Shown: positions 6,419 to 58,069 of the stretch, piece by piece | Position numbering within the stretch: position 1 is the stretch's first letter | Layout: each line of letters opens with the position of its first letter | Assembly (NCBI GenBank): GCA_964016885.1 | Contig: OZ024751.1 | Coordinates: 620,001 to 684,000 of the forward strand | Length of the DNA stretch: 64,000 bases | Direction of reading: 5' to 3' | From: Eledone cirrhosa | Taxonomy: Eukaryota | The notes under the pieces: model-generated | The model's database searches: none | Told to the model about the DNA's origin: nothing | What the model saw: only the letters and a program-made list of their open reading frames with translations | Position numbers and translations under genes: made by a program

Positions 6419-6496
6419 ATTTATCTAAAAATCTACCATGACCCTTTAATAACTTTTTTTTTTAAATATAAAATCATGATAGATTTTTAGATAAAT
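6419..6496. repeat. Inverted repeat, 23-bp arms with 1 mismatch
   Basis: ATTTATCTAAAAATCTACCATGA (6419-6441) versus TCATGATAGATTTTTAGATAAAT (6474-6496). Confidence 0.8.
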
Positions 6497-6978
6497 TCAT
6501 AAAAAGAAAAAGAAGGGGGTTTTCTATCTAAATAGTTAAGTTGGCCACTCCGTTTCTTGATATCAGTAAAAAGAAAAATGTACTTTATAAGGTTAACTCC
6601 ATACTATCATCATTCGACAAGTTAGTTGGATAGAGAGACAAGTACAGTGATAAGGAGGAAGGAATATGCGTGTTGCTTTTTCTTAATCGTCATTTGACAG
6701 TGACGTTGTTAAAATGACGAAGTGTAGCTGTCATCTCTCACCGACTGACAGCCTTGATGGTACACGCAGACCCACAGAAATACACAGCTTAGATCGTCTA
6801 GTTACACATATGTCATCTTCTTCCTTCATTAATTACATTTTCTCTAATATAAACAAGCTGCTTTTTTATTTCCTTAATATTTTAATCACCCTCTTTCTGT
6901 CATTCTCGCTGTTTGCTTCGCTACCAAGTTTTACTCATGTATCATCTGACACATGTGCGTCATTATGCGAGCAGTTGA

Positions 6979-7004
6979 TCACGTGACTCTGCTCCTCCAA
7001 TCAG
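6979..7004 (+). promoter_or_regulatory. Candidate promoter motifs: palindromic E-box TCACGTGA and CCAAT box CCAATCAG
   Basis: Both motifs lie within 60 bp upstream of ATG 7039. Motif match only. Confidence 0.3.
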
Positions 7005-7038
7005 ATTTTATAGCTGGATATACGACAATTTGTTGGTC

Positions 7039-8235
7039 ATGTCGGATATAGCTGACTCTTCTACTTCACTACTCACTCAATCCCTTATGAATAACCCCAA
7101 CGCTACCGTTATTGACGGCACAAAAAACGATGAAAATGTTTTGTTAGTTTCTGATAATCCTCCCGAAACGAATTCCATAAGCCTTGACGAATGTAACCAG
7201 CTCGCTGGTTCGAGAAACACTAAACGGGTGACCGCCAGCTCTGTTAGGCTGTTTAGAGCTTTCTTAAGAGAGACCAATAATGGGAATACTGACTTCGAAA
7301 ATTTTAATGAAGAAATCCTTGTCAATCATTTGATAACTTTTTTCAGGCGGGTAAGAAAACCAAATGGTGATCTCTACACCAAAAATGGTCTGCTGTCAAT
7401 TCGTTTTGGATTAAGAAGGCGCTTGTTAGATTTACGTAAAGTTGATATAACTAAACACCCTCGGCTTAATTCAGTTTTCACTGTTCAGATCAATAAACTA
7501 AAACGAGAAGGAAAAGGGGACATAAACCATTATCCCCCTATTAGCCACAACGACATTTTCAAAATTTACAGTTCTGGAGTTTTGTCGCCCGATAATCCAA
7601 AGGGTTTGTTAAGGAAAGTTTTCTTCGAAACTGAAATGTTTTTCAGTCGTCGAAGTAGAGAAAACCTAAGGGATTTGAAAGGAAGTCACTTTAAAATTGA
7701 AACCGACGATCAGGGCAAGAAATATTTGACTACAGATTTTGACCCATCTTTTGGTGGTGGACCAATCAAATGGATTTACGAAACTGGCACGGCCATGTGC
7801 CCAGTGAAAGCTTTTCAGAAGTTTTTGATGAAACGGCATTCTGGTTGTGAGGCTTTGTTTCAACGCCCCGTCGATATAATTCCATTTTTTGAACAGGATC
7901 CTTGGTTTTACTGTTCAGCCCTCGGCCTTAACAAACTTGCCAACATGATGAGAGAAATTTCGGCGGAAGCTTACCTATCCAAGATATATACGAACCATTC
8001 CATAAGAGCTACCTCGAAATCGGTCTTTGATCTTGTTTGGAATGGTCTCTTCTCCCAGAACTCACCGAATACAATAGCGTCTATCCCCAGTAATATTGGA
8101 AGTATTAAAGAAACCACTTCTGTTCCAGCGGACAAAACACGGCAAAAGTCATCAGTTAAAGGAAATAATAAAACTACTATCGATTTGGTATCGAACTTAG
8201 ACATCGAAGAAATTGAAAGGAAGCATGTTCCTGTG
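7039..8235 (+). CDS. Coding exon: DUF3504 / Crypton tyrosine-recombinase-derived domain protein (KCTD1/KIAA1958/ZMYM-like), copy A; probably spliced at 8236
   Basis: Intact ORF (7030-8337, first ATG 7039, in-frame upstream stop at 6976). Motifs: FFRRVRKPNGDLY..SIRFGLRR, LKREGKG, FFSRRSRENLR, CPVKAF, LFQRP, LSKIYTNHSIRAT. Donor GTG|GTGAGT at 8235/8236, phase 0. Confidence 0.85.
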
Positions 8236-8879
8236 GTGAGTTACACCATTCACTACATTAACTCCCATTTTTTAAAACCACACAGACTCCCTCCCTCCTG
8301 CCTCTACCTGTTCGTCTGTGGGACCCTGTTTCTCTAACATTACCTTCCACACTTCAAGTTTCACTTTCCTTAGAGACTCACCTTCCCCAGGCGTCGTAAA
8401 ATGAGTGATGTCACAGATATAATCGTAGGGATGGAGGTTGGAGGGTCAACTGTTTTCCCCCTTTTTTTAATGTTTAATCATGTGTGGAAGAAGGATGAAA
8501 GACTGCGTGAGAGGAGTGATGTGATTGAATGTGGAAGGAAGTAGGGAAAAGGGGAAGACCAAGAACGACATGCTTAAATATGAGGGAGGAGGAAATGAAA
8601 GCCAAAGGGTTAGTTAAAGTTGAATGGGAACAACAGGGTAAAACTGGAGTAGCTTGTCACGGGGCCTGCAAGACTAACACCTCAAAACGCTTCTTGTAAT
8701 TAGAGAAGGCAGGGCAGAACTCATAACCATGTTCAGGGTGTTAGAGGTAAAGAGGGAGGGAAGAAAGTATCCTGAACTGGTCCGAATGATCGTAACAGAG
8801 TGGACTCTTCTAAGACTATCCACGAGACCAGGTGGCTGTGTTAAACTGGCCGATGGCGGATTAAGTTTGTCAAATAAAT

Positions 8880-9290
8880 AGTTCACAGCAGGAATTGAAC
8901 TCAGAACGCCAGACATATCGCCTGACGCTTTACCAATTCCACCAAACTACCACATTGCACTGCTATTTTATTTTATCGACTCTGAAAGAATAAAAAGGCA
9001 TAGTTGACCTAGGCGGAATTTGAACTCAAAACAAACAACTGAAACAAATGATAGCGACATAGATGAAATTTTTTCGGCCACGGCAACGTAATACCCACAA
9101 CGTCTCCCACCCCTATCTCTAGAGAGACCTACCTACACGCAAATTGTAAATAATATATGATAAATAAAATCGTTAATTTATATATAATAAATAATATAAT
9201 TGTTTCTACTTTTGGCACAAGGCCAGCAATTATTCCTGTGTATTACTGGTACTTTATTTTATCGACCCCGTAAGGATGAAAGGCAAAGTT
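8880..9290 (-). mobile_element. Fragments of a tRNA-derived SINE family
   Basis: Matches the reverse complement of the full copy at 59164-59390 (ttgacctaggcggaatttgaactca; ctggtactttattttatcgaccccgtaaggatgaaaggcaaagtt). Confidence 0.75.
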
Positions 9291-9816
9291 ATAATATATA
9301 CTATGTATAAATAAATATTATATATTTTATATTTTACTGTATTTATATATAATATGTATAATTTTATATTTAATATACTTTAATATCATCTCTGCCGCCT
9401 CCTTAGACCTCAGTGCACCACTGGACACTCTCAATCCTTCCGGAGTGGGTGGCATTGAGAAGGTTAGTGTCCACTATCAGAACCTCTGATGTAAAGGGCT
9501 CGCCAGAGTTTGTACTGGAAAGTCTTAGTGTGAACAGTCAGACATTGCAGCTCACAGTTATTGCAGAGTGAGTGGCTTTTATGCCTTTCCCGTAATGAAT
9601 AGCTGTAAGTTATAACGTGTGATGATTTGTCCCGAATGAAAGAGTTCTAGTCCTGTAGAAGCCCTTCTATATTATATATATATATACATACACACCTGCT
9701 CCTTGCTACACACGAACTTTTTACACCTGCAGTTTCCAACTTGTTTTCATGGTACGAAACCCCAAATATTACTGAGATCCAACTTGGCCTCAGCCGGATG
9801 GCTGGAACAGGTTAAA

Positions 9817-9885
<69 letters not shown>

Positions 9886-9892
9886 GAACTCG

Positions 9893-10055
9893 GGTAAAGC
9901 TTTATTTACGTTCTGTAACTTAGCGGTTCAACAAATATTTCAGATAGGCAAAATAAGTAACAGACTTGAAAAAATATATACCAGCGGTCAATATTATCGA
10001 CTAAGAAATCCATTCAAAGAAGATATCCGCGGTCTAATGACTGCAACGAATTAAT
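9893..10055 (+). mobile_element. SINE-like dispersed repeat fragment (second family) after a (TA)n(GA)n tract
   Basis: 'gtaacttagcggttcaacaaa...aaaataagtaacagacttgaaaaa' is the approximate reverse complement of 14205-14260. Confidence 0.55.
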
Positions 10056-10589
10056 GAGTATATACATACACGTACATGCATACACACACAAGTACAACAT
10101 ACACACACATATACATACATACATATATGATGGCTGCAAACTCTGCTAAGAGTATTGCAATCGTTTGTCAGATTATAGAATTTGGTGCACTTTTAGGCTA
10201 CGGCCAGTCACCGAACATACATACAAACACGTCCATCATACATACAAGCATGCATACATATAAGAATACATTCATACCTACATATAAGAATACATACATT
10301 CATACCGACAATAAAATCTTTTGGGGTTATCTCCCATGTCCTGCTTGCTAGATTGGATTAAGCTAACAATGTTTTTTTTTCTCCCTATCACTGGTGTAAT
10401 TTTGATGATCATTTCTCGACTTACCACATCGATTATATTAACATCCTCTTTACTATTAGATTTGCAGGTGGAAGGCGTCCCTAGGTATTTTCTCCGTACC
10501 CCACTGTCACTTTTTTTGTGTCTAAACTGTATAAGATTAGTATACTAGTATGGCATGGTATGGGCCCGCAACTCCTAAAGTAGTAAGGG

Positions 10590-10848
10590 CGCCGTTGTAC
10601 TATACGGCGTTTCTAGTGCAGTTTCAGACTGACAGACAGTAGATTTCTTCCAGAGAAGGATAGATAGATAGATAAGGGGATGAGTAATTAAGAGAGATAA
10701 GGAAGAATGGACCCCAGTACTAGAATAGTATTGATCTCGAAAGGCAAAGTTGACCTCGGTGGAATTTGAGCTCAGAGAGCAGAGAGCCGGAACGAATACC
10801 ACAAAGCATTTAATCCGACGTTCTAACGACTCTGCCAATTCGCCGCCA
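10590..10848 (-). mobile_element. tRNA-derived SINE head with attached body (composite repeat)
   Basis: Reverse strand starts GGCGGCGAATTGGCAGAGTCGTTAG (A box) and includes GAGCTCAAATTCC (B box). Body is homologous to 59780-60062. Confidence 0.75.
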
Positions 10849-11120
10849 GAGTAGTAATAGTGGTGGTGCTGTTAAAATAGGCGTGTGTGCGTGTTTTACA
10901 CGCTGTACACTCTACTGCTGACAACACTTTACTATTTGATTTCCAGGCAGAAGACGTTCCTGGTCCCTGAGTAATTTTCTTCTCCGGTAATACTTTTAAG
11001 AAGAAAATGGTCTTACCATGTCTAAAAGGGTGTGTGAGAGGAGTATATTGTGGCAAGAAGGATGAGGTGACACCCGGCGCCCACTGATGTTGAAATAGCA
11101 CTATGTATACGCTGATGTTT

Positions 11121-11132
11121 ACTGAAGCCACA

Positions 11133-11172
<40 letters not shown>

Positions 11173-11184
11173 TGTGGCTTCAGT
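11121..11184. repeat. Perfect inverted repeat around an (AT)n tract
   Basis: ACTGAAGCCACACC-(AT)n-GGTGTGGCTTCAGT. Confidence 0.9.
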
Positions 11185-11427
11185 GACGGAACTAGCATGG
11201 GTTTCACTGCTAGGATCGGTTGCATCTCAGCGTACTCAATAGGTAATGTTAAATAAACTCCCAGAGTGGACACATAGTTATTCGCTTCAATACAACGCAC
11301 GTAAATGGGTACCTTCAATTATATATATAGTTCGAAATAACTGAAAACAAAAAACAAACAAAAGCAGGAGTAAATGTTACATGGTATTATTAGCTTAACG
11401 CTTGGTGAGAGTGGGGTGCTGGTGGTC

Positions 11428-11460
11428 ACGACATTTCGGACATAATCCCTTCATCAGGGG
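11428..11460 (-). ncRNA. Degenerate minimal hammerhead ribozyme core (Penelope-like)
   Basis: Minus strand reads CUGAUGA-AG-GGA-UUAUG-UCC-GAAA-UG-UC. The stem I 5' side is replaced by poly(C). Confidence 0.45.
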
Positions 11461-11736
11461 GGGGGGGGGGGGGAGAACTCCGAGAAGGAATAAGAAGGGA
11501 AAAACACGAAAGGACGGGAAAAATAGAAATAAAAATAAAATTGAATACAGAATGTATATATATATATTGGTAAACGGAATAGAAAATGCTGACAAATTGT
11601 TCACAGTTGAAAAATAGTTTAATTAGGAATAAAAGAGTATTAGTAATTGTATTGGTTAGTATTCAGTTGTGGTTTTAAGCATTTTCTATTCCGTTTACCA
11701 ATATATAATAACTTGTGTGTTACACCTCTATTCTTT

Positions 11737-11779
<43 letters not shown>

Positions 11780-12487
11780 TTTGTATTCAATTTTATTTAT
11801 TATGGAATACTGTTGGCTTTTTGCTACAATATTTTCTACACCTTTCATTTATATATATATAAAACTCTGCGATTGCTTGCTTGTCTGTAATGTAATACAG
11901 CGAAAAGGGCGCATAATGGGAAAATACTCTGAAAGGAAGCTGCCCCTGAAATGGGAATACAAATAGAATAAAACAGTTTCGCGTAAATCAGAGCACGGGT
12001 TCCGGAGATATGAGGTTTTCTGGGTGCCTTCATAAACAAAAAGAGGGAAAGAGACATTGAGAGAGGGAGAGGAGAAGGAGAATGGAAGAGAGCTGGTGGT
12101 GTTGTGTATATATATATATATGAGTGTGTGTGTATATATATATATGTGTGTGTGTCTATGACCAGCGTATATAGATCACATATATACACACACACATACA
12201 CACTCATATATACATACACACACGTATATATTTCACATTATAAACATGTCTGTGAATATCTTAATTATTTAAAAATCATTTTTAAGTGAACATAATTAAA
12301 AAAAATATATTTCGAAGTGAACGTGAGCGAACGGGTGACGGGTGGTCTAGTATATGTTTATATATACAACCCTATGCACAATATACTCTGCTTGAATCAA
12401 CATGATCAACAGGCAATAGGTGAAACCTAAGATCCTGATCTGATGTCCTACTTATCACACACTGACACACACATATGTATGTGTATA

Positions 12488-12672
12488 TGCATATGTGTCT
12501 ATGCATGTGTGTATATATATATATACATACAGGGTCGGTGGAACTAGGGGCCCGTGACATGGCCCCCAATAATTATATTTTATGCATATGTGTCTATGTA
12601 TGTGTGTTTATATATACATACAGTGTCGGTGGAACTAGGGGCCCGTGGCATGGTCCTCAATAATTATATTTT
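12488..12672 (+). repeat. Tandem duplication (~97 bp) containing a MITE-like end CAG(G/T)GTCGGTGGAACTAGGGGCCCGTG
   Basis: Two near-identical copies, cores at ~12530 and ~12621. Confidence 0.75.
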
Positions 12673-12781
12673 TCACCCTAAACTATCAAAACACATCTAT
12701 TTGTATATGCGCTACAATTTATGGACGTGTTATATTTATTGACTGTCGAAGATTTTTTTTAGATTGTGGTTGATATTTGAT

Positions 12782-12900
12782 AATTGTTTCTACTTTTGGC
12801 ACAAGGCCATCAATTACTCAGTACATTACTGGTACTTTATTTTATCGACCCCGTAAGGATGAAAGGCAAAGTTAACCTCGGCGGGATTTGAACTCAGAAT
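12782..12900 (-). mobile_element. tRNA-derived SINE fragment
   Basis: Nearly identical to 9198-9290, including the same internal deletion relative to 59164-59390. Confidence 0.8.
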
Positions 12901-13274
12901 GGCAAGGACCGTAACTCTATGCGTCAAAGCAAGCTAAACTAATCACTACAACTAAATTGACCAATTCCCGCCCCCTCCTCCAATTCAGAAATGCCTCCAT
13001 CGCCCCTGATTTATATATCACACATATGTATATATATTTGTATGTATACATAGTTACACACAAACATACATCTTGAAACACGTGTATTGGTTATAGTTTC
13101 GTAAGAAAGGGAACAAACATACGTATGTATCCATGTACACACGTGTGTAGTAGTTCGCAGCACTTTTGTGAACCATTTCACCAGATTCTATTTCTCCAAT
13201 AACAATATCACCCAATATACATTATATCTATTCATATTCCTCCAATATATGTCAAAATATATTGATAAATTATG

Positions 13275-13304
<30 letters not shown>

Positions 13305-13306
<2 letters not shown>

Positions 13307-13350
13307 CTGATGGCTTTGTGATAAACAGGCGAAACTCCAGAGTAACTTAG
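13305..13350 (+). ncRNA. Degenerate hammerhead-like motif
   Basis: CUGAUG(G)-CUUUGUGAUAAACAGGC-GAAA-CUC-CA-GAG-UA. The core deviates at A9 and stem I is poor. Confidence 0.35.
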
Positions 13351-13626
13351 ACTCACTATTTAGCCTTAATAAAATGAATATTAAAACTTTACTTCGGTAT
13401 TGAGTACTCTTTTTTCTCAGCCGCCAACCACATAATACTGGGACACAGCATTTGAGACAAACCGTCTAACTACGGATGTAAAGTTGTCCCTCCCCATCTT
13501 CCCTTTTTCTCACTTTTCTAAATTGTTTTCTTGGTATACACACACACACACATGCACCCCTCCCCACACACATATATATATACAATGATATTAAATAAAT
13601 TGAAACTATATTTATAAAACCATATT

Positions 13627-13687
13627 TATTCTATTATATATATTTCAAAGGTACCAAAACTTTGGTACGCCCTCATCAGATAAAATA
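13627..13687 (-). ncRNA. Minimal type I hammerhead ribozyme (Penelope-like)
   Basis: UAUUUUAU-CUGAUGA-GGGC-GUACCAAA-GU-UUUGGUAC-CUUU-GAAA-UAUAUA-UA|AUAGAAUA: 8-bp stem I, 8-bp stem II core and a self-complementary short stem III. Confidence 0.6.
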
Positions 13688-13721
13688 CAAAGTTTGGTTT
13701 ATAAAAATATTGACGTAACCA

Positions 13722-13892
13722 AGTAAAAATACCTTAACGGTTTAAGTTTTTCCTGGGTATATATATATATATATATATACATATGAAAATGTTTAATCCC
13801 GACGGCAGAGCTCAAGCCGTTTTGACGGCTATTTCTGTCCAGAAATAGCCGTCGAAACGGCTTGAGCTTTGTCGTCGGGGTTAAATATTTTC

Positions 13893-13931
<39 letters not shown>

Positions 13932-13965
13932 CAGGAAAAACTTGAACCGCTAAGGTATTTTTACT
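13722..13965. repeat. ~240-bp fold-back (long inverted repeat with a 2-nt centre)
   Basis: Arms of ~116-126 bp, each with an (AT)n tract, centred on CTG-TC-CAG (13835-13842). Confidence 0.95.
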
Positions 13966-14174
13966 ACTCTTCTTCGTCTTCGTCTTCGTCTTCTTCGCCT
14001 TCTTCTAGCAGGGTTAAATATTTTCCTATTACCCACTTTTGAGTACTCTGGTGCGTTATGGTCCATCTGGTTCCTTACCACACCTCCTTCGTTATATATA
14101 TATATATATATATAAAACGAAGGAAGTGTATATATATATATATATATATTGTTCAATGAAGAAAATTTTCTTCA

Positions 14175-14640
14175 AAATGTCCTTGAAGTAGATTGACACT
14201 ACTTATTTTTTCAAATCTGGTACTTATTTTATCGACTTTTTTGTTGAACCGCTAAGTTACGTGTTATAAACAAACAATTAATTTAGACACATGCGCTCAT
14301 CATCATGATCATCGTCTTTACGCCGAACGACTCTTTTTTGAAGCAATATTTTGTAGTCGGATGAACCCATCCTGAGACTAACCCTTTTAGTCACTTCTTA
14401 CGACTCGCAGCCGCACGATTTACGTATTTTAACCGGCTTGACCCCACCTCTCATAGGCCCTGTATATATATATGCAAAAGGCAAACAGAAATAAGAAAGC
14501 AAACTATATACGACGGGCTTCCACACACTTTCTGTTCCAAATTTCACTCGCACAACACCGACCTATCCGAAGCTATCGTGGAACACATTTACTTGGTCAA
14601 GGTGCCACGCAGTGTGACTGAACCCGAAACCAAGTGGTTC
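14175..14640 (-). mobile_element. Fragmented SINE-like element(s)
   Basis: Minus strand has GGTTTCGGGTTCAGTCACACTGCGTGGCACCTTGACCAAGT (B-box-like plus core) ...GAAGCCCGTCG. The 14205-14260 part matches 9915-9975 in reverse complement. Confidence 0.6.
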
Positions 14641-14856
14641 TACAGTATTCATTTCTTTTGATCTGGGACAACGTTTAAAGAATATTGGGGGTGGGCGTTG
14701 GGCGAAGGTACTACAGTCCAATATATTGGTTCAAGAGAGGTAGATAGATCGATTAACGGTTCGTTTCTCACCTTGATCAAGAATCGAACTCAGAACTGGA
14801 AACTGGGACACAATCAGATACACGTGTTTGTCTCCAACACTTGTCCGCACAATCAT

Positions 14857-17800
14857 CCACCACCACCACCACCCTCAACAACACCCACCACCACCCTCAA
14901 CAACAACCGACACCACCACCCTCAACAACAATCAACACCATCACCACCCTCAACAACAACCGACACCACCACCACCCTCAACAACAACCGACACCACCAC
15001 CACCGTCAACCACCACCACCCTCAACAACAACCAACACCACCACCACCCTCAACAACATCAACCACAACCACCACAACCACCACCCTCAACAACAACCGA
15101 CACCACCACCCTCAACAACAACCAACACCACCACCACCACCCTCAACAACAACCAACACCACCACGCTCAACAACAACCAACACCACCACCCTCAACAAC
15201 AACCAACACCACCCTCAACAACAACCAACACAACCAACACCACCCTCAACAACAACTGACACCACCACCCTCAACAACCATCAACACCACCACCACCACC
15301 GTCAACAACAACCAACACCACCACCACCCTCAACAACAACCAACACCACCACCACCACCCTCAACAACAACCAACACCACCACCACCACCCTCAACAACA
15401 ATCGACACCACCACCCTCAACAACAACCAACACCACCACCACCACCCTCAACAACAACCAACACCACCCTCAACAACAACCAACACAACCAACACCACCC
15501 TCAACAACAATCGACACCACCACCCTCAACAACAACCAACACCACCACCACCACCCTCAACAACAACCAACACCACCCTCAACAACAACCAACACCACCA
15601 CCACCACCCTCAACAGCAATCGACACCACCACCCTCAACAACAACCACCAACCTCAACAACAACCGACACCACTGCCACCCTCAACAACAACCGACACCA
15701 CCACCACCATCCTCAACAACAACCGACACCACCACCACCACCCTCAACAACAACCAATACCACCACCACCACCCTGAACAACAAATGACACCACCAGCAC
15801 CCTTAACAACCGACACTACCACCACCACCCTCAACAACAACCAACACCACCCTCAACAACAACCAACACCACCACCACCACCCTCAACAGCAATCGACAC
15901 CACCACCCTCAACAACAACCACCAACCTCAACAACAACCGACACCACTGCCACCCTCAACAACAACCAACACCACCACCACCCTCAACAACAAATGACAC
16001 CACCAGCACCCTTAACAACAACCAACACCACCCTCAACAACAACCGACACCACCACCACCACCCTCAACAACAACCAACACCACCACCACCCTCAACAAC
16101 AAATGACACCACCACCACCCTCAACAACAACCAACACCAACACCCTCAACAACAACCACCACCACCACCACCCTCAACAACAACCAACACCACCACCACC
16201 CTCAACAACAAATGACACCACCACCACCCTCAACAACAACCAACACCAACACCCTCAACAACAACCACCACCACCCTCAACAACAACCAACACCACCACC
16301 ACCCTCAACAAAAACCGACACCACCACCACCCTCAACAACAACCAACACCACCACGCTCAACAACAACCAACACCACCACCCTCAACAACAACCAACACC
16401 ACCCTCAACAACAACCAACACAACCAACACCACCCTCAACAACAACTGACACCACCACCCTCAACAACCATCAACACCACCACCACCACCGTCAACAACA
16501 ACCAACACCACCACCACCCTCAACAACAACCAACACCACCACCACCACCCTCAACAACAACCAACACCACCACCACCACCCTCAACAACAATCGACACCA
16601 CCACCCTCAACAACAACCAACACCACCACCACCACCCTCAACAACAACCAACACCACCCTCAACAACAACCAACACCACCACCACCACCCTCAACAACAA
16701 TCGACACCACCACCCTCAACAACAACCAACACCACCACCACCACCCTCAACAACAACCAACACCACCCTCAACAACAACCAACACCACCACCACCACCCT
16801 CAACAGCAATCGACACCACCACCCTCAACAACAACCACCAACCTCAACAACAACCGACACCACTGCCACCCTCAACAACAACCGACACCACCACCACCAT
16901 CCTCAACAACAACCGACACCACCACCACCACCCTCAACAACAACCAATACCACCACCACCACCCTGAACAACAAATGACACCACCAGCACCCTTAACAAC
17001 CGACACTACCACCACCCTCAACAACAACCAACACCACCACCACCCTCAACAACAAATGACACCACCAGCACCCTTAACAACAACCAACACCACCCTCAAC
17101 AACAACCGACACCACCACCACCACCCTCAACAACAACCAACACCACCACCACCCTCAACAACAAATGACACCACCACCACCCTCAACAACAACCAACACC
17201 AACACCCTCAACAACAACCACCACCACCACCACCCTCAACAACAACCAACACCACCACCACCCTCAACAACAAATGACACCACCACCACCCTCAACAACA
17301 ACCAACACCACCACCCTCAACAACAACCACCACCACCAACACCCTCAACAACAACCACCACCACCACCACCCTCAACAACAACCAACACAACCACCACCC
17401 TCAACAACAACCAACACCACCACCAACACCCTCAACAACAACCACCACCACCACCACCCTCAACAACAACCACCACCACCCTCAACAACAACCAACACCA
17501 CCACCACCCTCAACAACAACCAACACCACCACCACCCTCAACAACAACCAACACCTCCACCACCCTCAACAACAACCAACACCACCACCACCCTCAACAA
17601 AAACCGACACCACCACCACCCTCAACAAAAACCGACACCACCACCACCCTCAACAAAAACCGACACCACCACCACCCTCAACAACAACCAACACCTCCAC
17701 CACCCTCAACAACAACCAACACCTCCACCACCCTCAACAACAACCAACACCACCACCACCCTCAACAACAACCGACACCACCACCACCCTCAACAACAAC

Positions 17801-20800: not shown

Positions 20801-23800
20801 AACCAACACCACCACCACCACCCTCAACAACAACCAACACCACCACCACCCTCAACAATAACCAACACCACCACCACCCTCAACAACAACCAACACCACC
20901 ACCACCACCCTCAACAACAACCAACACCACCACCACCACCCTCAACAACAACCAACACCACCACCACCACCCTCAACAACAACCAACACCACCACCACCA
21001 CCCTCAACAACAACCAACACCACCACCACCACCCTCAACAACAACCAACACCACCACCACCACCCTCAACAACAACCAACACCACCACCACCACCCTCAA
21101 CAACAACCAACACCACCACCAGCCTCAACAACAACGGACACCACCACCACCCTCAACAACAACCAACATCACCACCACCCTCAACAACAACCAACACCAC
21201 CACCACCACCCTCAACAACAACCAACACCACCACCACCACCCTCAACAACAACCGACACCACCACCACCCTCAACAACAACCACCACCACCACCACCCTC
21301 AACAACAACCAACATCACCACCACCACCACCCTCAACAACAACCAACACCACCACCACCACCCTCAACAACAACCAACACCACCACCACCACCCTCAACA
21401 ACAACCGACACCACCACCACCCTCAACAACAACCGACACCACCACCACCACCCTCAACAACAACCAACACCACCACCACCACCCTCAACAACAACCGACA
21501 CCACCACCACTACCCTCAACAACAACCGACACCACCACCACTACCCTCAACAACAACCAACACCACCACCACCACCCTCAACAACAACCAACACCACCAC
21601 CACCACCCTCAACAACAACCGACACCACCACCACCCTCAACAACAACCGACACCACCACCACCACCCTCAACAACAACCAACACCACCACCACCACCCTC
21701 AACAACAACCAACACCACCACCACCACCCTCAACAACAACCGACACCACCACCACTACCCTCAACAACAACCGACACCACCACCACCCTCAACAACAACC
21801 AACACCACCACCACCACCACCCTCAACAACAACCAACACCACCCCCACCCCCACCCTCAACAACCAACACCACCCCCACCCTCAACAACCAACACCACCA
21901 CCACCCTCAACAACAACCAACACCACCACCACCCTCAACAACAACCAACACAACCCCCACCCTCAACAACAACCAACATCACCACCACCCTCAACAACAA
22001 CCGACACCATCACCACCACCCTCAACAACAACCGACACCACCACCACCCTCAACAACAACCGACACCACCACCACCACCCTCAACAACAACCAACACCAC
22101 CACCACCACCCTTAACAACAACCGACACCATCACCACCACCCTCAACAACAACCTACACCACCCCACCCTCAACAACAACCAACACCACCACCACCCTCA
22201 ACAACAACCAACACCACCACCACCCTCAACAACAACCAACACCACCACCACCCTCAACAACAACCAACACCACCCCCACCCTCAACAACAACCAACACCA
22301 CCACCACCCTCAACAACAACCAACACCACCACCACCCTCAACAACAACCAACACCACCCCCCACCCTCAACAACAACCGACACCATCACCACCACCCTCA
22401 ACAACAACCGACACCACCACCACCCTCAACAACAACCGACACCATCACCACCACCCTCAACAACAACCGACACCACCACCACCCTCAACAACAACCGACA
22501 CCACCACCACCCTCAACAACAACCAACACCACCCCACCCTCAACAACAACCAACACCACCCCACCCTCAACAACAACCAACACCAAAACCACCACCACCC
22601 TCAACAACAACCGACACCATCACCACCCTCAACAACAACCGACACCACCACCACCCTCAACAACAACCGACACCACCACCACCCTCAACAACAACCGACA
22701 CCACCACCACCCTCAACAACAACCGACACCATCACCACCACCCTCAACAACAACCGACACCACCACCACCCTCAACAACAACCGACACCACCACCACCCT
22801 CAACAACAACCAACACCACCCCACCCTCAACAACAAGCAACACCACCCCACCCTCAACAACAACCAACACCAACACCACCACCACCCTCAACAACAACCG
22901 ACACCATCACCACCCTCAACAACAACCGACACCACCACCACCCTCAACAACAACCGACACCACCACCACCCTCAACAACAACCGACACCACCACCACCCT
23001 CAACAACAACCGACACAACCACCACCACCCTCAACAACAACCAACACCACCACCACCACCCTCAACAACAACCGACACCATCACCACCACCCTCAACAAC
23101 AACCGACACCACCACCACCCTCAACAACAACCAACACCACCCCACCCTCAACAACAACCGACACCACCACCACCCTCAACAACAACCAACACTACCCCAC
23201 CCTCAACAACAACCAACACCACCCCACCCTCAACAACAACCAACACCACCACCACCCTCAACAACAACCGACACCACCACCACCCTCAACAACAACCGAC
23301 ACCATCACCACCAGCCTCAACAACAACCAACACCACCACCACCCTCAACAACAACCAACACCAACATCACCCTCAACAACAACCAACACCACCACCACCA
23401 CCCTCAACAACAACCGACACCACCACCACCCTCAACAACAACCAACACCACCACCACCACCCTCAACAACAACCGATACCACCACCACCACCCTCAACAA
23501 CAACCGACACCACCACCACCCTCAACAACCAACGCCACCACCACCCTCAACAACAAGCGACACCACCACCACCCTCAACAACAACCAACACCACCACCAC
23601 CACCCTCAACAACAACCAACACCACCACCACCCTCAACAACAACCGCCACCGTCACCAACACCACCACCCTCAACAACAACCGACACCACCACCACCCTC
23701 AACAACAACCAACGCCACCACCACCCTCAACAACAACCGCCACCGTCACCAACACCACCACCCTCAACAACAACCGACACCACCACCACCCTCAACAACA

Positions 23801-47800: not shown

Positions 47801-50800
47801 AACAACCGACACCACCACCACCCTCAACAACAACCGACACCACCACAACCCTCAACAACAACCAACACCACCACCACCCTCAACAACAACCGACACCATC
47901 ACCACCACCCTCAACAACAACCGACACCATCACCACCACCCTCAACAACAACCGACACCACCACCACCCTCAACAACAACTGACACCACCACAACCCTCA
48001 ACAACAACCGACACCACCACCCTCAACAACAACCAACACAACCACCACCCTCAACAACAACCAACACCACCACCCTCAACAACAACCAACACAACCACCA
48101 CCCTCAACAACAACCAACACCACCACCACCACCACCCTCAACAACAACCGACACCACCACCCTCAACAACAACCAACACAACCACCACCCTCAACAACAA
48201 CCAACACCACCACCACCCTCAACAACAACCAACACCACCACCACCACCCTCAACAACAACCGACACCACCACCACCCTCAACAACAACCGACACCACTAC
48301 CACCCTCAACAACAACCAACACCACCACCACCCTCAACCACAACCGACACCACTACCACCACCCTCAACCACAACCACCACTACCACCACCCTCAACAAC
48401 AACCACAACCACCACCCTCAACAACAACCGACACGACTACCACCACCCTCAACCCAACCACCACCACCACCACCCTCAACAACAACCACAACCACCACCC
48501 TCAACAACAACCAACACAACCACCACCCTCAACAACAACCAACACAACCACCACACTCAACAACAACCACACCACCACCACCACCCTCAACAACAACCAA
48601 CACCAACATCACCACCCTCAACAACAACCAACACCAACATCACCACCCTCAACAACAACCGACACCACCACCACCCTCAACAACAACCGACACCACCACC
48701 ACCCTCAACAACAACCAACACCACCACCACCACCACCCTCAACAACAACCGACACCACCACCACCCTCAACAACAACCAACACAACCACCACCCTCAACA
48801 ACAACCAACACCACCACCACCCTCAACAACAACCAACACCACCACCACCACCCTCAACAACAACCGACACCACCACCACCCTCAACAACAACCGACACCA
48901 CTACCACCCTCAACAACAACCAACACCACCACCACCCTCAACAACAACCAACACCACCACCACCACCCTCAACAACAACCGACACCACCACCACCCTCAA
49001 CAACAACCAACACCACCACCACCCTCAACAACAACCGACACCACCACCACCCTCAACAACAACCAACACCACCACCACCACCCTCAACAACAACCGACAC
49101 CACCACCACCACCCTCAACAACAACCAACACCACCACCACCCTCAACAACAACCGACACCACCACCACCACCCTCAACAACAACCAACACCACCACCACC
49201 ACCCTCAACAACAACCAACACCACCACCACCCTCAACAACAACCGACACCACCACCACCCTCAACAACAACCGACACCATCACCACCACCCTCAACAACA
49301 ACCGACACCACCACCACCCTCAACAACAACCGACACCACCACAACCCTCAACAACAACCGACACCATCACCACCACCCTCAACAACAACCGACACCATCA
49401 CCACCACCCTCAACAACAACCAACACCACCACCACCCTCAACAACAACCAACACCACCACCACCACCCTCAACAACAACCGACACCACCACCACCCTCAA
49501 CAACAACCGACACCACCACAACCCTCAACAACAACCAACACCACCACCACCCTCAACAACAACCGACACCATCACCACCACCCTCAACAACAACCGACAC
49601 CACCACCACCCTCAACAACAACCGACACCACCACAACCCTCAACAACAACCGACACCACCACCCTCAACAACAACCAACACAACCACCACCCTCAACAAC
49701 AACCAACACCACCACCACCACCACCCTCAACAACAACCAACACCACCACCCTCAACAACAACCAACACAACCACCACCCTCAACAACAACCAACACCACC
49801 ACCACCACCACCCTCAACAACAACCGACACCACCACCCTCAACAACAACCAACACAACCACCACCCTCAACAACAACCAACACCACCACCACCACCACCC
49901 TCAACAACAACCGACACCACCACAACCCTCAACAACAACCGACACCATCACCACCACCCTCAACAACAACCGACACCATCACCACCACCCTCAACAACAA
50001 CCGACACCACCACCACCCTCAACAACAACCGACACCACCACAACCCTCAACAACAACCGACACCACCACCACCCTCAACAACAACCGACACCATCACCAC
50101 CACCCTCAACAACAACCGACACCACCACCACCCTCAACAACAACCGACACCACCACCACCCTCAACAACAACCGACACCACCACAACCCTCAACAACAAC
50201 CGACACCATCACCACCACCCTCAACAACAACCGACACCACCACAACCCTCAACAACAACCAACACCACCACCACCACCCTCAACAACAACAACCGACACC
50301 ACCTCAACAACAACCACCACCACCACAACCCTCAACAACAACCGACACCACCACCACCACCCTCAACAACAACCAACACCACCACCACCACCCTCAACAA
50401 CAACCGACACCATCACCACCACCCTCAACAACAACCGACACCACCACCACCCTCAACAACAACCGACACCACCACAACCCTCAACAACAACCGACACCAC
50501 CACAACCCTCAACAACAACCGACACCATCACCACCACCCTCAACAACAACCGACACCATCACCACCACCCTCAACAACAACCGACACCATCACCACCACC
50601 CTCAACAACAACCAACACCACCCCACCCTCAACAACAACCGACACCACCACAACCCTCAACAACAACCAACACCACCACCACCACCCTCAACAACAACCG
50701 ACACCACCACCACCCTCAACAACAACCGACACCACCACAACCCTCAACAACAACCAACACCACCACCACCCTCAACAACAACCGACACCGTCACCACCAC

Positions 50801-53800
50801 CCTCAACAACAACCGACACCATCACCACCCTCAACAACAACCGACACCACCACCACCCTCAACAACAACCGACACCACCACAACCCTCAACAACAACCAA
50901 CACAACCACCCTCAACAACAACCAACACCACCACCACCCTCAACAACAACCGACACCATCACCACCACCCTCAACAACAACCGACACCACCACCACCCTC
51001 AACAACAACCGACACCACCACAACCCTCAACAACAACCAACACCACCACCACCCTCAACAACAACCGACACCATCACCACCACCCTCAACAACAACCGAC
51101 ACCATCACCACCACCCTCAACAACAACCGACACCACCACAACCCTCAACAACAACCGACACCACCACAACCCTCAACAACAACCGACACCACCACCCTCA
51201 ACAACAACCAACACAACCACCACCCTCAACAACAACCAACACCACCACCCTCAACAACAACCAACACAACCACCACCCTCAACAACAACCAACACCACCA
51301 CCACCACCACCCTCAACAACAACCGACACCACCACCCTCAACAACAACCAACACAACCACCACCCTCAACAACAACCAACACCACCACCACCCTCAACAA
51401 CAACCAACACCACCACCACCACCCTCAACAACAACCGACACCACCACCACCCTCAACAACAACCGACACCACTACCACCCTCAACAACAACCAACACCAC
51501 CACCACCCTCAACCACAACCGACACCACTACCACCACCCTCAACCACAACCACCACTACCACCACCCTCAACAACAACCACAACCACCACCCTCAACAAC
51601 AACCGACACGACTACCACCACCCTCAACCACAACCACCACCACCACCACCCTCAACAACAACCACAACCACCACCCTCAACAACAACCAACACAACCACC
51701 ACCCTCAACAACAACCAACACAACCACCACACTCAACAACAACCACACCACCACCACCACCCTCAACAACAACCAACACCAACATCACCACCCTCAACAA
51801 CAACCAACACCAATATCACCACCCTCAACAACAACCGACACCACCACCACCCTCAACAACAACCGACACCACCACCACCCTCAACAACAACCAACACCAC
51901 CACCACCACCCTCAACAACAACCGACACCACCACCACCCTCAACAACAACCAACACAACCACCACCCTCAACAACAACCGACACCACCACCACCACCCTC
52001 AACAACAACCAACACCACCACCACCACCCTCAACAACAACCGACACCACTACCACCCTCAACAACAACCAACACCACCACCACCCTCAACCACAACCGAC
52101 ACCACTACCACCACCCTCAACAACAACCGACACCACCACCACCCTCAACAACAACCGACACCACTACCACCCTCAACAACCACCAACACCACCACCACCC
52201 TCAACCACAACCGACACCACTACCACCACCCTCAACAACAACCAACACCACCACCACCCTCAACAACAACCGACACCACCACCACCCTCAACAACAACCA
52301 ACACCACCACCACCACCCTCAACAACAACCGACACCATCACCACCCTCAACAACAACCGACACCACCACCACCACCCTCAACAACAACCAACACCACCAC
52401 CACCCTCAACAACAACCAACACAACCACCACCCTCAACAACAACCGACACCACCACCACCACCCTCAACAACAACCAACACCACCACCACCACCCTCAAC
52501 AACAACCAACACCACCACCACCCTCAACAACAACCAACACCGCCACCACCACCCTCAACAACAACCAACACCACCACCACCCTCAACAACAACCAACACA
52601 ACCAACACCCTCAACAACAACCGACACCACCACCACCACCCTCAACAACAACCGACACCACCACCACCCTCAACAACAACCACCACCACCATCACCCTCA
52701 ACAACAACCAACACCACCACCACCCTCAACAACAACCAACACCACCACCACCCTCAACAACAACCGACACCACCACAACCCTCAACAACAACCACCACAA
52801 CCCTCAACAACAACCACCACCACCATCACCCTCAACAACAACCACCACCACCACCACCCTCAACAACAACCAACACCACCACCACCACCCTCAACAACAA
52901 CCAACACCACCACCACCCTCAACAACAACCAACACAACCACCACCCTCAACAACAACCGACACCACCACCACCACCCTGAACAACAACCAACACCACCGC
53001 CACCCTCAACAACAACCGACACCACCACCACCCTCAACAACAACCAACACCACCACCACCCTCAACAACAACCAACACAACCACCACCCTCAACAACAAC
53101 CGACACCACCACCACCACCCTGAACAACAACCAACACCACCACCACCACCCTCAACAACAACCAACACCACCACCACCCTCAACAACAACCAACACAACC
53201 ACCACCCTCAACAACAACCGACACCACCACCACCCTCAACAACAACCAACACCACCACCACCCTCAACAACAACCAACACAACCATCACCCTCAACAACA
53301 ACCACCACCACCACCACCCTCAACAACAACCAACACCACCACCACCCTCAACAACAACCAACACCACCACCACCCTCAACAACAACCAACACCAACATCA
53401 CCCTCAACAACAACCGACACCACCACCACCACCCTCAACAACAACCAACACCACCACCACCCTCAACAACAACCGACACCACCACCACCCTCAACAACAA
53501 CCGACACCACCACAACCCTCAACAACAACCAACACCAACATCACCCTCAACAACAACCGACACCACCACCACCACCCTCAACAACAACCAACACCACCAC
53601 CACCCTCAACAACAACCGACACCACCACCACCCTCAACAACAACCGACACCACCACAACCCTCAACAACAACCAACACCAACATCACCCTCAACAACAAC
53701 CGACACCACCACCACCACCCTCAACAACAACCGACACCACCACCACCCTCAACAACAACCGACACCACCACCACCCTCAACAACAACCGACACCACCACA

Positions 53801-54310
53801 ACCCTCAACAACAACCACCACCACCACCACCCTCAACAACAACCGACACCACCATCACCCTCAACAACAACCGACACCACCACCACCCTCAACAACAACC
53901 GACACCACCACCACCCTCAACAACAACCGACACCACCACCACCACCCTCAACAACAACCAACACCAACATCACCCTCAACAACAACCGACACCACCACCA
54001 CCACCCTCAACAACAACCGACACCACCACCACCCTCAACAACAACCGACACCACCACCACCCTCAACAACAACCGACACCACCACAACCCTCAACAACAA
54101 CCACCACCACCACCACCCTCAACAACAACCGACACCACCATCACCCTCAACAACAACCGACACCACCACCACACTCAACAACAACCGACACCACCACCAT
54201 CACCCTCAACAACAACAAACGCCACCACCACCCTCAACAACAACCACCACCACCACCATCACCCTCAACAACAACCGCCACCACCACCACCCTCAACAAC
54301 AACCAACAAC
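14857..54310. repeat. ~39.5-kb satellite, unit TCAACAACAACC(A/G)A(CAC)nCC of 28+/-3n bp (roughly 1,350 units), with higher-order duplications
   Basis: Continuous periodicity with measured units of 28 and 31 bp. The + strand is almost only C and A. It decays into simple CAC/TAC/CAT repeats up to ~54575. Confidence 0.98.
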
Positions 54311-55019
54311 ATCGCCACCACGGCGCCAACCACTTCACCGCTACTACTACCACCCCTACCACTACCATCTCTCTATTTATGTTAGAAATTGTTAACATTA
54401 TTGTTATTGTTTGTTATACACCATTGCCACTACGCCACCACCTCCATAACTACCACCACGGTCACCATTTCCATAACTACCACCACAACTATCATCTCCT
54501 TCACTACTACCACCGCCACCATCGACATTATTATCAATACCATCCCCCCCCCCCCCCACCACCACCACCATCACTAAGTCTGCTGTCGTACAGTAACAAG
54601 GCAGCTGGCGTTGAAGGTTATATTATTATTCTTACTATATTTCATCTAAAAGGAGATCTGATGCTATCTTGACTTTCACCAAACTCTCTCAGTCTGCAAC
54701 TCTTCTTATATTCTTAACAATGTGACGGCTTTTTCTCTTCTTTTGTCGCTTGGTTTTGTTGTTGTGGTTGTTAACAACAGACCTCCACCACCACCAACCG
54801 TGTTATCACCAGTACTACCATTACTAATGTTACAACTGTTACTAACAAAAACGTAAAAATAGTGATAATAGTAATAATAATAATAATAGTAGTAATGGAG
54901 GTGGTAACTGTGGTGCATTGTAACTTTTTAATTGTTTTTTAACAAAGCACTAGGTATTCACCCTTCGCCATGAAACTATACCCGAATGCTATGGTGTATG
55001 TATGTATATATCTTTACTA

Positions 55020-55022
<3 letters not shown>

Positions 55023-55106
<84 letters not shown>

Positions 55107-55115
55107 TACATACAT
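55023..55115. repeat. Compound microsatellite (TC)n(TA)n(CA)n
   Basis: Direct reading. One of many dinucleotide tracts in the window. Confidence 0.9.
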
Positions 55116-56441
55116 ACTAGCAGTTGAGACAGCAAGAGCTCAGTCGCCGGGTCCCCGACTCTCTGTAATATATATCTATTGTTTCACTTCTCTCTCTCTG
55201 TATATATATCACTGTAATATCTATCAGCTATACATTGGGTAACCAACATGTAATGAGTATGAATCAGTTTTCTCCTGTTCTATAAAATGGAGTGTTGTAT
55301 TTGATGTTAGATGGTAGAGAAATAAATAAATAAAGCTTTTCGTGAATAGAAAGAGTAAGAGAAGTAATACAATAGGAAAGTGAGTTGTGTGTGTTTGAGA
55401 GAAACAGTGTTGTGTTTGTGAGAGAGAGACAAAGAGAAAGTTGTGTGTGTGTTTGAGAGAGAGAGAGACAGAGTTGTTTGTGAGTGAGAGAGAGAAAGAC
55501 ACAGAGTTGTGTGTGTGTGTGAGAGCGAGATAGAGTTGTTTTTGTTTGAGAGAGAGAGTTGTGTGTGAAGTGAAGTAGCTTTGCTTGTGTTGGTAGTTAG
55601 GCAGGCAGCTGTCTACTGCTGCTTGTGTTCTACTTAATATGAAAACCAAACCAACCAACCAACCATTACACCAGCCAACCAACCAGTCAGCCTGGCTGTT
55701 GTTTGTTGTTGTTTACAGTTAAAACTGCTTGTCGATATAACAACCCTGTTGTTAGGCTTACTCTCAGAGAGTGGCGGCAGTCAGTTAGTTGTGTTGGTGG
55801 CCAGCTAGCTATATACCAGTCAGTACACATCGATTTACTGCACAGTCTGACCTAAATATATACATACACACATATATAATATATATACACACATATATAC
55901 AGCACATACACCATGATAGAACAACTATAAACAACGCACAGCAGAAACACAAGCTCGAGAAGGTTCGACAACGTTGGCGGCGGTGAACGCAGTAATATAG
56001 ATTTTGTCAAGTTGTGGATTTTTGGTTAGAATTTTCTCAGCGCCCAGCTTTAGCATAACATAGCTTAGCTTAGCTTAGATTTCTCTCCCCTCAACACAAA
56101 CCAAATCAAGTGAAATTTGTGTCTATATCTCTGACACAACCACAACAGCTGCCATACGAACAAGTTTTATGGTAGCAGTCGGTTCAAACATTTTTTTCTC
56201 TCTCATTTTCTTATTTACACAACAGACTTGCTTAAATTCACAATTAATATATTACATCAAAACCAGTCGAAAGTCTTGATGTTGCATCGTTTCGCCCTTG
56301 GGGCAAATTCTATTTCACAACTCGACACAACAAGGTGAATTTATTTAGAAACTATTAAATCGGATTAACAATTCGTGTTGCCAACGTGGCTGACACACAA
56401 CTACAGAGAAGCTTTGTGTAGAGTGCCTTTGTTGTGACATC

Positions 56442-56453
56442 CAAAATGGCCGA
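56442..56453 (+). promoter_or_regulatory. YY1-type motif / strong Kozak context overlapping the start codon (CAAAATGGCCGA)
   Basis: Matches the AANATGGC consensus at ATG 56446. Motif match only. Confidence 0.35.
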
Positions 56454-57657
56454 CCCTCCGTTTGTTGGAGACATTACTACATCTTCTGTAGACGGTGGCT
56501 TGTACCTCACAACAGCTTTGAACAACGAAGAAATCGAAGGTTTACTAACAAGAGACTCCAAATCCAGTCAACAGGCCGAAAAATATGCAGTGTTGAAATT
56601 CCGCCACTATCTGACCAAGCGAGGTGAACCGTTATCTTTAGAAAATTTGTCCTACCATGTAACCAGTGGTGACATGCCTGCTAAGGAACGACTTTTAACC
56701 TATTTGACCACCTTCTTCAACGATCTCAGACGAACTGATGGCAGTAAATATAAATTCAATGCCCTGAGAAGCATTCGTTACGCATTGAATCGCTTCACTT
56801 TGAAGTTTGGAGTTGATTTTCTCAACGATGCTTATCTGAAAAAACCATTAAACGATGCATGGATGGCGTTGGGCGAATGCCTGAAGCTGGAAGGTAAAGC
56901 TGATGTACAACATCATGATATTTTATCGTTGGAAGAAGTTAAAAAAGCCTATGCCTGGTGTAACCATAATCTTTCCGATCCCGATCGACTTCAGAAGAGA
57001 GTTTTCATGGATATTTACCTCTACTTTGGACGTCAGTGCCGGCAGAATTTACCACACCTGACTAAAGATAATTTCGGCATGGATGTCGATGTTAACAACC
57101 AACGTTATGTTTACTTTATCGATAAAGGCGGCGACCCAACCCGTAAAGGTAATGCTCAGTTAGTGATGAAAGAACGCGTAGGGTTTGCTAACTGTCCCGT
57201 TAAGATGTTCCTAAAATATGTTTCCAAGTTAGATCCACACTACCCGAGGTTCTTCTGCCACCAAAAGCTAAACGTCGACCCGCTCTACCACACGGTTTGG
57301 TACACAAAACAACCGATGGGCGAGAAGAGAATGGCAGAGTTTATGAAATCCATCTCGAACGACGCCGGTTTGTCTAAAGTTTACACGAACCATTGCTTGC
57401 GTTCCACACTGCTCTACCTAATGGAAGAAGGTGGGTTGGAAGCTAAGGACGTCAGTCGACTGACCTGTAGTCAAGCACCTCATGAAGGGCCCATAGCCGA
57501 AGTCCTATCAGCAGCAGCACTACCACCACTACTACCACAACAACCATCATCATCAGCACAACGTCCCTTACATACCCAACATGCCACTTCCTCCACCACC
57601 AACACATGGTCCTCTCACTCTGTCACTTCACTTCACAGTCGGAATAAATCGTCTCAG
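56446..57657 (+). CDS. Coding exon: DUF3504 / Crypton tyrosine-recombinase-derived domain protein, copy B; probably spliced at 57658
   Basis: Intact ORF (56434-57669, ATG 56446). Motifs: FFNDLRRTDGSKY..SIRYALNR, LKLEGKA, YFGRQCRQNL, CPVKMF, WYTKQPMG, LSKVYTNHCLRST. Perfect donor CAG|GTAAGT at 57657/57658, phase 0, three codons before the stop. Confidence 0.87.
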
Positions 57658-58069
57658 GTAAGTCGCTAACAACACATTTACCCTCACCTTCCACTATCAC
57701 TTGCTTCTTCTTTAAGCCACCCCGACAACCTTGTATGTCACTGCACACACACACTATGATATATGTATGTTGTATATCACCCATATATGGAGCCTCTATT
57801 TTCTCTAAATAAAGGAAGGTAACTCTAACATCAATTTCACAAGTCAGGCACATTTCTAGTAAATTCTTAACACCTAATACCTATGTAGTGGTACCCTGGC
57901 ATCGTTGATTCGATTCAATGTCAAGCTTGACTGAACAGATCTGTGGCTAAGGGTGTTTCCTGCTGTATCCAACCCGTCTTTTATTTTTTACGGTTGATGT
58001 GATTTGATTCGACGGAAATTTGGCTGCTATTTCTAGCAGCTCCTCTTCCCAAGCTGGTTCGAGTTTTCT

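Follow-up and report, generated by a model that had tools for sequence, protein, structure and literature searches.

Likely alternative first exons encoding transposon-derived domains upstream of a shared BTB body in Eledone cirrhosa

Exons A and B and their gene

The window analysed here is a stretch of 64,000 nucleotides from the Eledone cirrhosa genome (3.0 Gb), positions 620001-684000 of contig OZ024751.1 (hereafter C11). It carries two intronless exons, A and B, each coding for a variable N-terminal domain, or head, and the two are likely alternative first exons of one gene, sharing exons for a coiled coil and a BTB domain. Head exon A (window 7039-8235, plus strand) encodes a DUF3504/Crypton tyrosine-recombinase-fold domain and a linker; its open reading frame (ORF) starts at ATG 7039, is stop-free and reaches a genomic stop ending at 8337, and a donor at 8236 (GTG|GTGAGT, last exon base 8235) lies ahead of that stop. 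Head exon B (window 56446-57657, plus strand) encodes a DUF3504/Crypton domain and an S/T/P-rich linker; its stop-free frame runs from ATG 56446 to a genomic stop ending at 57669, with a donor at 57658 (CAG|GTAAGT, last exon base 57657). Both donors are phase 0 and are the top-scoring ones in the tails of their ORFs; GT[AG]AG occurs nowhere else in the B ORF. A and B lie 49 kb apart and share 28% identity over 327 aligned residues (E 3e-32). The first-pass annotation had described just such a pair of diverged same-strand frames ending at consensus donors of equal phase, with no convincing coding exon between them, and this description holds: among the scanned single-copy, complex ORFs of at least 70 aa between A and B, none is Pfam-detectable as a coding exon. 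The S/T/P-rich linker that it saw after each domain is present in B, whereas S/T enrichment in the A linker is mild.

Three constant exons lie 18-77 kb beyond the window end, on the same strand as A and B. Constant exon 1 (C11:702317-702618) has a phase-0 acceptor, 24.7 kb from the B donor, and contains a Q/E-rich repeat; constant exons 2 (C11:706313-706454) and 3 (C11:760030-761088) together encode a PF00651 BTB domain plus tail. PF00651 is the only Pfam match of the constant exons, and, judged from sequence, the constant region encodes a coiled-coil and BTB body of ZBTB/KLHL type.

A search with the last exon leads to a single Octopus gene, LOC106879774 in O. bimaculoides and LOC115220336 in O. 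sinensis and O. vulgaris. In all three species isoform X1 starts with A (...ERKH(A/V)PV|EENNCELY) and isoform X2 with B (...RNKKSSQ|EENNCELY); these models join exactly the two predicted donors to one acceptor, followed by the BTB domain. Shared constant exons beyond 64 kb and mutually exclusive first exons spliced to one acceptor had both been proposed from the window alone, and both are now matched by actual exons and gene models. The A core is 91% identical to the head of Octopus isoform X1 and the B core 96-97% identical to that of X2; the cores are 81-97% identical to orthologues in other cephalopods and in further relatives. The B core is also 84% identical to P0003/P0036, whose frames carry V (a GT codon) at the donor position. 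Conservation of A and B ends at the donor, and the read-through tails vary between species. The heads, the phase-matched donors and acceptors, the constant exons and the single-strand order are evident in this genome; the predicted splicing of A and B to a common acceptor is evident from the gene models of other Octopus species. Contigs from sequencing runs of this species (four runs of one study, read kind not on record) over window 6300-9300 are uninformative on splicing: those of runs X2 and X3 span 6410-9147, the pieces listed for run X4 cover 7041-7539 and 7541-8156, and neither a joint nor a loose end is listed at 8235. At window 7076, one low-depth contig of run X4 has C>T relative to the assembly, where allele, error and editing are indistinguishable.

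Three different FLYWCH heads and, in O. sinensis, a head weakly similar to CENP-B begin the other isoforms of the Octopus gene, which route via an extra common exon before the constant exons. In E. cirrhosa, FLYWCH heads lie upstream of the window at C11:590936 and C11:597218, on the BTB strand, a head type beyond the DUF3504 exons noticed at first pass. A broken FLYWCH head at C11:580396-580608 (about 580.4 kb) matches O. bimaculoides isoform X5; a stop interrupts it, the orthologous start is missing, and it is likely decaying. An intermediate exon at window 3089-3196 (plus strand, phase 0/0) resembles the ...ENIEMLS.P...HEV.E.K segment common to Octopus X3-X7 and, on this resemblance, likely links the FLYWCH head at C11:597218 to the constant exons; its second copy (C11:593789-593902) stands behind the FLYWCH head at C11:590936. 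The C11 stretch searched yielded neither the CENP-B-like head of O. sinensis nor the initial half of the intermediate exon known from Octopus. A variable-first-exon architecture at this locus is very likely.

Domain identity and fold of A and B

Against PF12012 (DUF3504), A scores 24.7 bits (E 3e-5) and B 27.6 bits (E 4e-6), both under the 29.7 cut-off, while DUF3504 paralogues on C4, C10, C21 and C23 score above it. The Crypton/DUF3504 assignment made at first pass therefore stands on the paralogues that exceed the cut-off and on fold matches, beyond the sub-threshold scores of A and B themselves. The structure model of A is alignment-based (predicted local distance difference test, pLDDT, 75.5); a single-sequence model reached only pLDDT 37.9 and was set aside. 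The top Foldseek matches of the alignment-based model are QRICH1 (9hjt, E 9e-6) and Cre, and comparison by VIA gives Z 13.4 against Cre (root-mean-square deviation, rmsd, 7.1; 260 aligned) and Z 13.1 against QRICH1 (rmsd 16.5; 242 aligned). The modelled structure confirms for A a predicted tyrosine-recombinase fold, with core-binding and catalytic domain.

In the alignment, the HxxR motif is retained in A and B, and B has Q at the position of A's R in R-x-x-E. No GH..S...Y-type segment, which would carry the catalytic Tyr, follows HxxR in either (alignment, no structural overlay); the motif and the tetrad positions in A and B are presumed here. In the genome, A and B each have one 100% match, and the next matches reach at most 41% identity, in a search that scores the best candidates only. 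An active Crypton transposon was considered for A and B and rejected, the R-H-R-Y tetrad being apparently incomplete and no near-identical copies lying among the best candidates scored; this speaks against the multi-copy mobile elements that the first pass had allowed for. Loss of catalytic residues is known in animal DUF3504 (PMC13465315, in the part available).

Promoters and the choice of head

The DNA directly upstream of the heads is promoter-like. Across the 40 heads that have an ATG, at this and the paralogous loci described below, the median CpG observed/expected ratio in the 300 nt upstream is 1.07, compared with 0.49 in 1500 random windows and 0.20 ahead of 19 constant or intermediate exons (one of these 19 was placed 6 nt off its acceptor). 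Unmethylated promoters in molluscs are recognisable by retained CpGs. A YY1, CRE or E-box motif is present upstream of 16 of the 40 heads, against 194 of the 1500 random windows (p 3e-5). Upstream of A, candidate promoter motifs lie at window 6980-7004 (plus strand), with an E-box CACGTG at 6980-6985 and CCAATCAG at 6997-7004, where promoter function is suggested by the motifs and CpG content; a YY1-like motif, CAAAATGGCCG, overlaps the B ATG (56446). Upstream of the 40 heads, the best acceptor scores do not significantly exceed random values (p 0.054, 0.13) and fall far short of those of true acceptors.

The supplement of PMC10027918 lists O. bimaculoides complementary DNA (cDNA) models, of which 8 of 11 LOC106877732 rows and both LOC106879774 rows were compared. 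All seven models bearing an untranslated region among these differ at the 5' end (five of LOC106877732, the gene on C4, and two of the C11 gene), and three of these 5' ends, those of two FLYWCH heads on C11 and of a THAP head on C4, match by eye the E. cirrhosa DNA directly upstream of the same head's ATG. Separate promoters are favoured because the upstream DNA is CpG-rich, acceptors show no excess and the cDNA models start per head; each head probably has its own promoter. An apparent shared leader, MKNVINEDD..., in two isoforms was examined as a counter-example and set aside: one of the two continues as V (GT codon), as would be expected of a donor inside one and the same first exon.

A family of BTB loci

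Searches with the BTB half-exons reveal about 20 paralogous loci in the genome, 14 of which were examined (C7 and C23b over 20 kb only). At least one same-strand head lies upstream at 13 of the 14, and at least two at 8. Six family BTB loci fall outside this count (C4:297.95-298.33 Mb, C4:312.38 Mb and C11:35.33 Mb); two of the further C4 loci have identical scores, which may point to a duplication, either recent or made by the assembly. Each of the eight DUF3504 ORFs in the clade of A and B has a family BTB downstream of it on its own strand. One array, at C4:234.67-234.78 Mb, has at least 20 heads; three of them are DUF3504, and THAP, CENP-B/Tc5 helix-turn-helix (HTH), Psq and a small Cys/His domain are also represented. 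Other loci contribute Brinker, Mos1-HTH, CG-1 and STPR domains. Isoform numbers of the O. bimaculoides orthologue of this C4 locus go up to X36, and 21 of its isoforms have the last 450 aa in common behind 17 different heads, with two headless forms. Several distal O. bimaculoides heads have no match within the C4 stretch compared and may sit further upstream. The BTB of the C4 paralogue matches IVNS1ABP, ZBTB18, Miz1/BCL6, KLHL3 and SPOP in the PDB. In the scanned heads no transposase catalytic domain was found, except a DDE domain in one model (P0115). The first C4 body is followed, at a distance of 12 kb, by a partial copy of a constant BTB exon (C4:234796662-234796856, 92% identical).

In a strand control over the first two regions, with multi-copy ORFs filtered beforehand and five previously identified plus-strand ORFs excluded, head-type Pfam matches (E<=0.001) occur in 23 of 146 plus-strand ORFs but in none of the 141 on the minus strand. 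Of 41 heads, 29 have a phase-0 best donor, as against 35% of control ORFs (p 5e-6); the 41 remain from 47 profile hits after removal of an unrelated gene, a broken head, two second exons and two weak hits. Phase 1 is best in 11 cases, 8 of them in the C4b cluster, where eight of nine heads are phase 1 and both checkable acceptors are phase 1 as well.

Independently of RefSeq, contigs of 1.8-4.6 kb also encode proteins with varied heads on one body (P0129 with THAP and P0257 with a FLYWCH-like head; P0276/P0277; P0069/P0103), and DUF3504 and BTB stand within a single ORF in P0067, P0088 and P0132. These contigs are likely spliced transcripts, because the matching C21 head and BTB lie 16 kb apart in E. 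cirrhosa. Some of the proteins cluster with Sepia proteins, and this suggests that the head-BTB layout is older than the octopod-decapod split. Among ten matches of the family profile that were looked up, the top named ones come from Octopus, Argonauta and Sepia; in a Lymnaea match (72 bits), BTB is the sole Pfam match.

Likeness to known systems

The Drosophila lola gene encodes a BTB factor with many isoforms, in the same layout as Drosophila mod(mdg4). For mod(mdg4), at least 31 isoforms are described, with a common 5' BTB exon and FLYWCH in most variable regions (PMC4667647, as far as available). Like these genes, the cephalopod loci combine one BTB body with many small domains of DNA-binding type, FLYWCH included. 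They differ in that the variable part is 5' and N-terminal while the constant BTB is C-terminal (in the full-length models examined), and in that the heads lie on one strand, are likely promoter-chosen and come from many unrelated families, in a layout repeated at about 20 loci. Membership in the mod(mdg4)/lola group, with its constant N-terminal BTB and variable 3' exons, was therefore rejected.

Variable first exons with their own promoters and shared constant exons are also the organization of UGT1 and of chelicerate sDscam. Clustered protocadherins likewise have tandem large first exons with own promoters, spliced to common constant exons (PMC7811963, in part). The first-pass comparison with protocadherins and UGT1 is right as regards tandem, same-strand variable exons and one constant set (junctions from the Octopus models). 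It fails on the nature of the variable exons: those of protocadherins, UGT1 and sDscam are tandem paralogues of one domain, whereas the heads here are non-homologous captures (THAP, CENP-B/Tc5 HTH, Brinker, Psq, FLYWCH, DUF3504, STPR and CG-1), with nested intermediate exons. The locus belongs to neither the mod(mdg4) nor the protocadherin family; it resembles mod(mdg4) turned around, with its exons laid out as in a protocadherin cluster.

A parallel for a DUF3504 head is vertebrate KCTD1, in whose isoform b a DUF3504 exon upstream of a BTB gene yields a DUF3504-BTB protein; in vertebrate KIAA1958 a/b, two intronless DUF3504 exons with about 26% identity serve as alternatives (PMC3212892, in the part available). 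KCTD1 combines a single head with a KCTD-type BTB, and a multi-family head array is not described in the available part of that source. A KCTD1/15-type constant domain had been named as an example for the present gene, but orthology to KCTD1/KCTD15 is rejected: the constant BTB matches PF00651 only, not the KCTD (T1) domain PF02214. Because it matches PF00651 and ZBTB/KLHL structures, the DUF3504-BTB fusion here is likely independent of KCTD1.

Some of these proteins have been listed before. The available parts of PMC10027918 give Octopus THAP-, CENPB-, Psq- and FLYWCH-BTB proteins as separate transposon-derived factors, treat BTB as a transposon component and omit DUF3504 from the six families of the summary table; the same loci appear in its supplement (11 rows of LOC106877732, 2 rows of LOC106879774). 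Its main text and supplements do not use the word 'isoform' (0 occurrences), and a variable-exon architecture is not described in the parts available. BTB-transposon domain fusions are also noted in PMC12062965, whose main text, as far as available, mentions neither octopus nor molluscs. No published description of this architecture was found in a search that left subscription journals and bioRxiv supplements mostly uncovered, so its absence is unproven; the isoforms themselves are already in RefSeq.

Origin and proposed working

In a quick tree with long branches, B groups with a head on C4 (Shimodaira-Hasegawa-like approximate likelihood ratio test, SH-aLRT, 100) and A stands apart. A and B are thus not a local duplicate pair, and separate acquisition of the heads, or their movement from locus to locus, is likely. 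There are hints of turnover in a broken head and in one that is known from O. sinensis but was not found here. A head would arise when a transposon lands in sense orientation upstream of a BTB body; it could be kept if it supplied a promoter and an ATG as well as an in-phase donor by which its catalytic part is removed or disabled. Promoter choice would then select the head, whose donor would be spliced to the constant acceptor, skipping all downstream heads. Since the heads further downstream are without acceptors, the heads would be mutually exclusive.

The BTB would likely dimerise isoforms, so that dimers pair different heads, and recruit cofactors. It appears, from sequence and PDB matches, to have an N-terminal extension, a feature tied to dimerising transcription-factor BTBs (PMC11426971, in part). 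By analogy, DUF3504 heads may be disarmed recombinases that still hold on to DNA, or may serve as DNA-located cofactors like QRICH1, which is present in a Zincore structure on DNA according to the title of its PDB entry. A role of the head-BTB proteins in transcription or chromatin is probable, given their predicted domains. As a whole, there is a high probability that this is one gene with alternative first exons under their own promoters, which would place interchangeable, transposon-derived and probably DNA-binding heads on one likely dimerising BTB body.

Such a gene would mean that the mod(mdg4)/lola strategy was invented a second time, independently and in mirror image; as a variable-first-exon cluster it would consist of unrelated transposon domains, not of tandem duplicates. 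Its repetition over about 20 paralogous BTB loci would give coleoids an expandable transcription-factor repertoire and would make transposase capture a natural experiment carried out many times. With dozens of factors entered as isoforms under a few 'uncharacterized' loci, a large cephalopod transcription-factor repertoire would be hidden from gene counts; the defined donors, acceptors and candidate promoters would open isoform-resolved tests in octopus and squid brains. A bolder idea, which we regard as speculative and rather unlikely, is a still-active coleoid 'transposon-head trap', in which about 20 BTB loci keep capturing transposon DNA-binding modules as promoter-bearing first exons and yield a hundred or more isoforms and combinatorial BTB dimers. 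Promoter choice differing between cells might then serve as a protocadherin-like identity code, or the loci might form a KRAB-zinc-finger-like system that turns each transposon's binding domain against it.

Alternative readings

The same proteins could arise by another mechanism of choice, if one upstream promoter and a non-coding leader served all heads and these were mutually exclusive internal exons as in Dscam1 or were trans-spliced as in mod(mdg4). This is improbable. Acceptor-like AGs upstream of 6 of 40 heads (scores 6-7.5), a pyrimidine tract with CAG about 220 nt before the B ATG, and headless isoforms with short alternative N-termini (P0015, P0017, P0076) would fit it, but overall the head acceptors score no better than random while CpG and promoter motifs are enriched, and in the available cDNA models the distinct 5' ends track each head's own upstream DNA. 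Because almost all heads lie on the BTB strand, trans-splicing is unnecessary, though not excluded. Even less credible is a single messenger RNA running A-B-BTB, with a two-headed protein instead of exclusive heads. The Argonauta model GAB1605052 does unite A, B and BTB in one 1387-aa protein, and the phase-0 symmetry would permit an A-B join; yet A and B are separate isoforms in three Octopus annotations, and no strong acceptor lies within 150 nt before the B ATG (score -3.4). Since other family models, e.g. from Sepia, appear to merge neighbouring units, the Argonauta model suggests merging by gene prediction. Least probable of all is that A and B are domesticated Crypton genes of one exon each, standing on their own, or inert transposon remnants, and that their position ahead of a BTB gene is a coincidence. 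An in-frame stop soon after the donor in both, and the listing of A/B as separate proteins in some databases (P0026, P0029, P0031), would fit this reading, whereas the halt of conservation at the donor with tails differing among species, the position of all eight DUF3504 ORFs of the clade, and the joined head-BTB proteins in models and on short contigs speak against it.

Several points weigh against alternative first exons with own promoters as a general account. The junction evidence for A and B comes from RefSeq/GenBank models of relatives, not from RNA of E. cirrhosa, and the O. vulgaris models are perhaps not independent, because their names were transferred from O. sinensis; the Argonauta model is itself one such point. 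A short shared leader is possible, because RefSeq 5' ends are not cap-mapped. Across the family, one of the 14 BTB loci (C4:286067249) is without any head, one weak head-like match lies on the opposite strand, the best donor is not phase 0 in 12 of 41 heads, and the donor score is below 1 in 10 of 41. The proposed transcription-factor role is drawn from the domains.

Repeats and neighbouring elements

About 40 of the 49 kb separating A from B consist of a CAA/CAC-rich satellite (window 14800-54400, no strand assigned), outside the coding structure. It contains a near-exact internal repeat at a spacing of about 16.7 kb (200-mers at 21000/37695, 23000/39723 and 30000/46727), which may be genuine or an assembly duplication, as well as a 6.5 kb sub-repeat. 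Two more long minisatellite arrays, at window 800-3080 and 61200-64000, yield long spurious ORFs; one is G-rich on the plus strand and the other has a T/G-rich unit. Between the intermediate exon and head A, a 298-codon ORF with a zf-RVT match (window 4875-5771, plus strand) is, from this match, likely the 3' end of an element of the long interspersed nuclear element (LINE) type. Upstream of the array, on the minus strand of C11 at 569.3-578.2 kb, lie Helitron remnants (PIF1, Helitron_like_N) and an 839-codon pol ORF of a long terminal repeat (LTR) retroelement.

Two antisense ORFs occur inside other head arrays: an intronless GSKIP-domain ORF in the C4b cluster (L067:4896-5360, minus strand) and a C2H2 zinc-finger ORF in the C23 array (L048:6385-6885, minus strand), both antisense to the BTB genes. 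Among other DUF3504 genes, the strongest Pfam score belongs to an intron-containing gene at C26:10478621-10483598 (plus strand), likely a WOC/ZMYM orthologue. An intronless 617-codon ORF at C11:4119732-4121585 (plus strand), which we take to be possibly KIAA1958-like, also exceeds the Pfam cut-off; it is distant from the head clade and has no family BTB match nearby.

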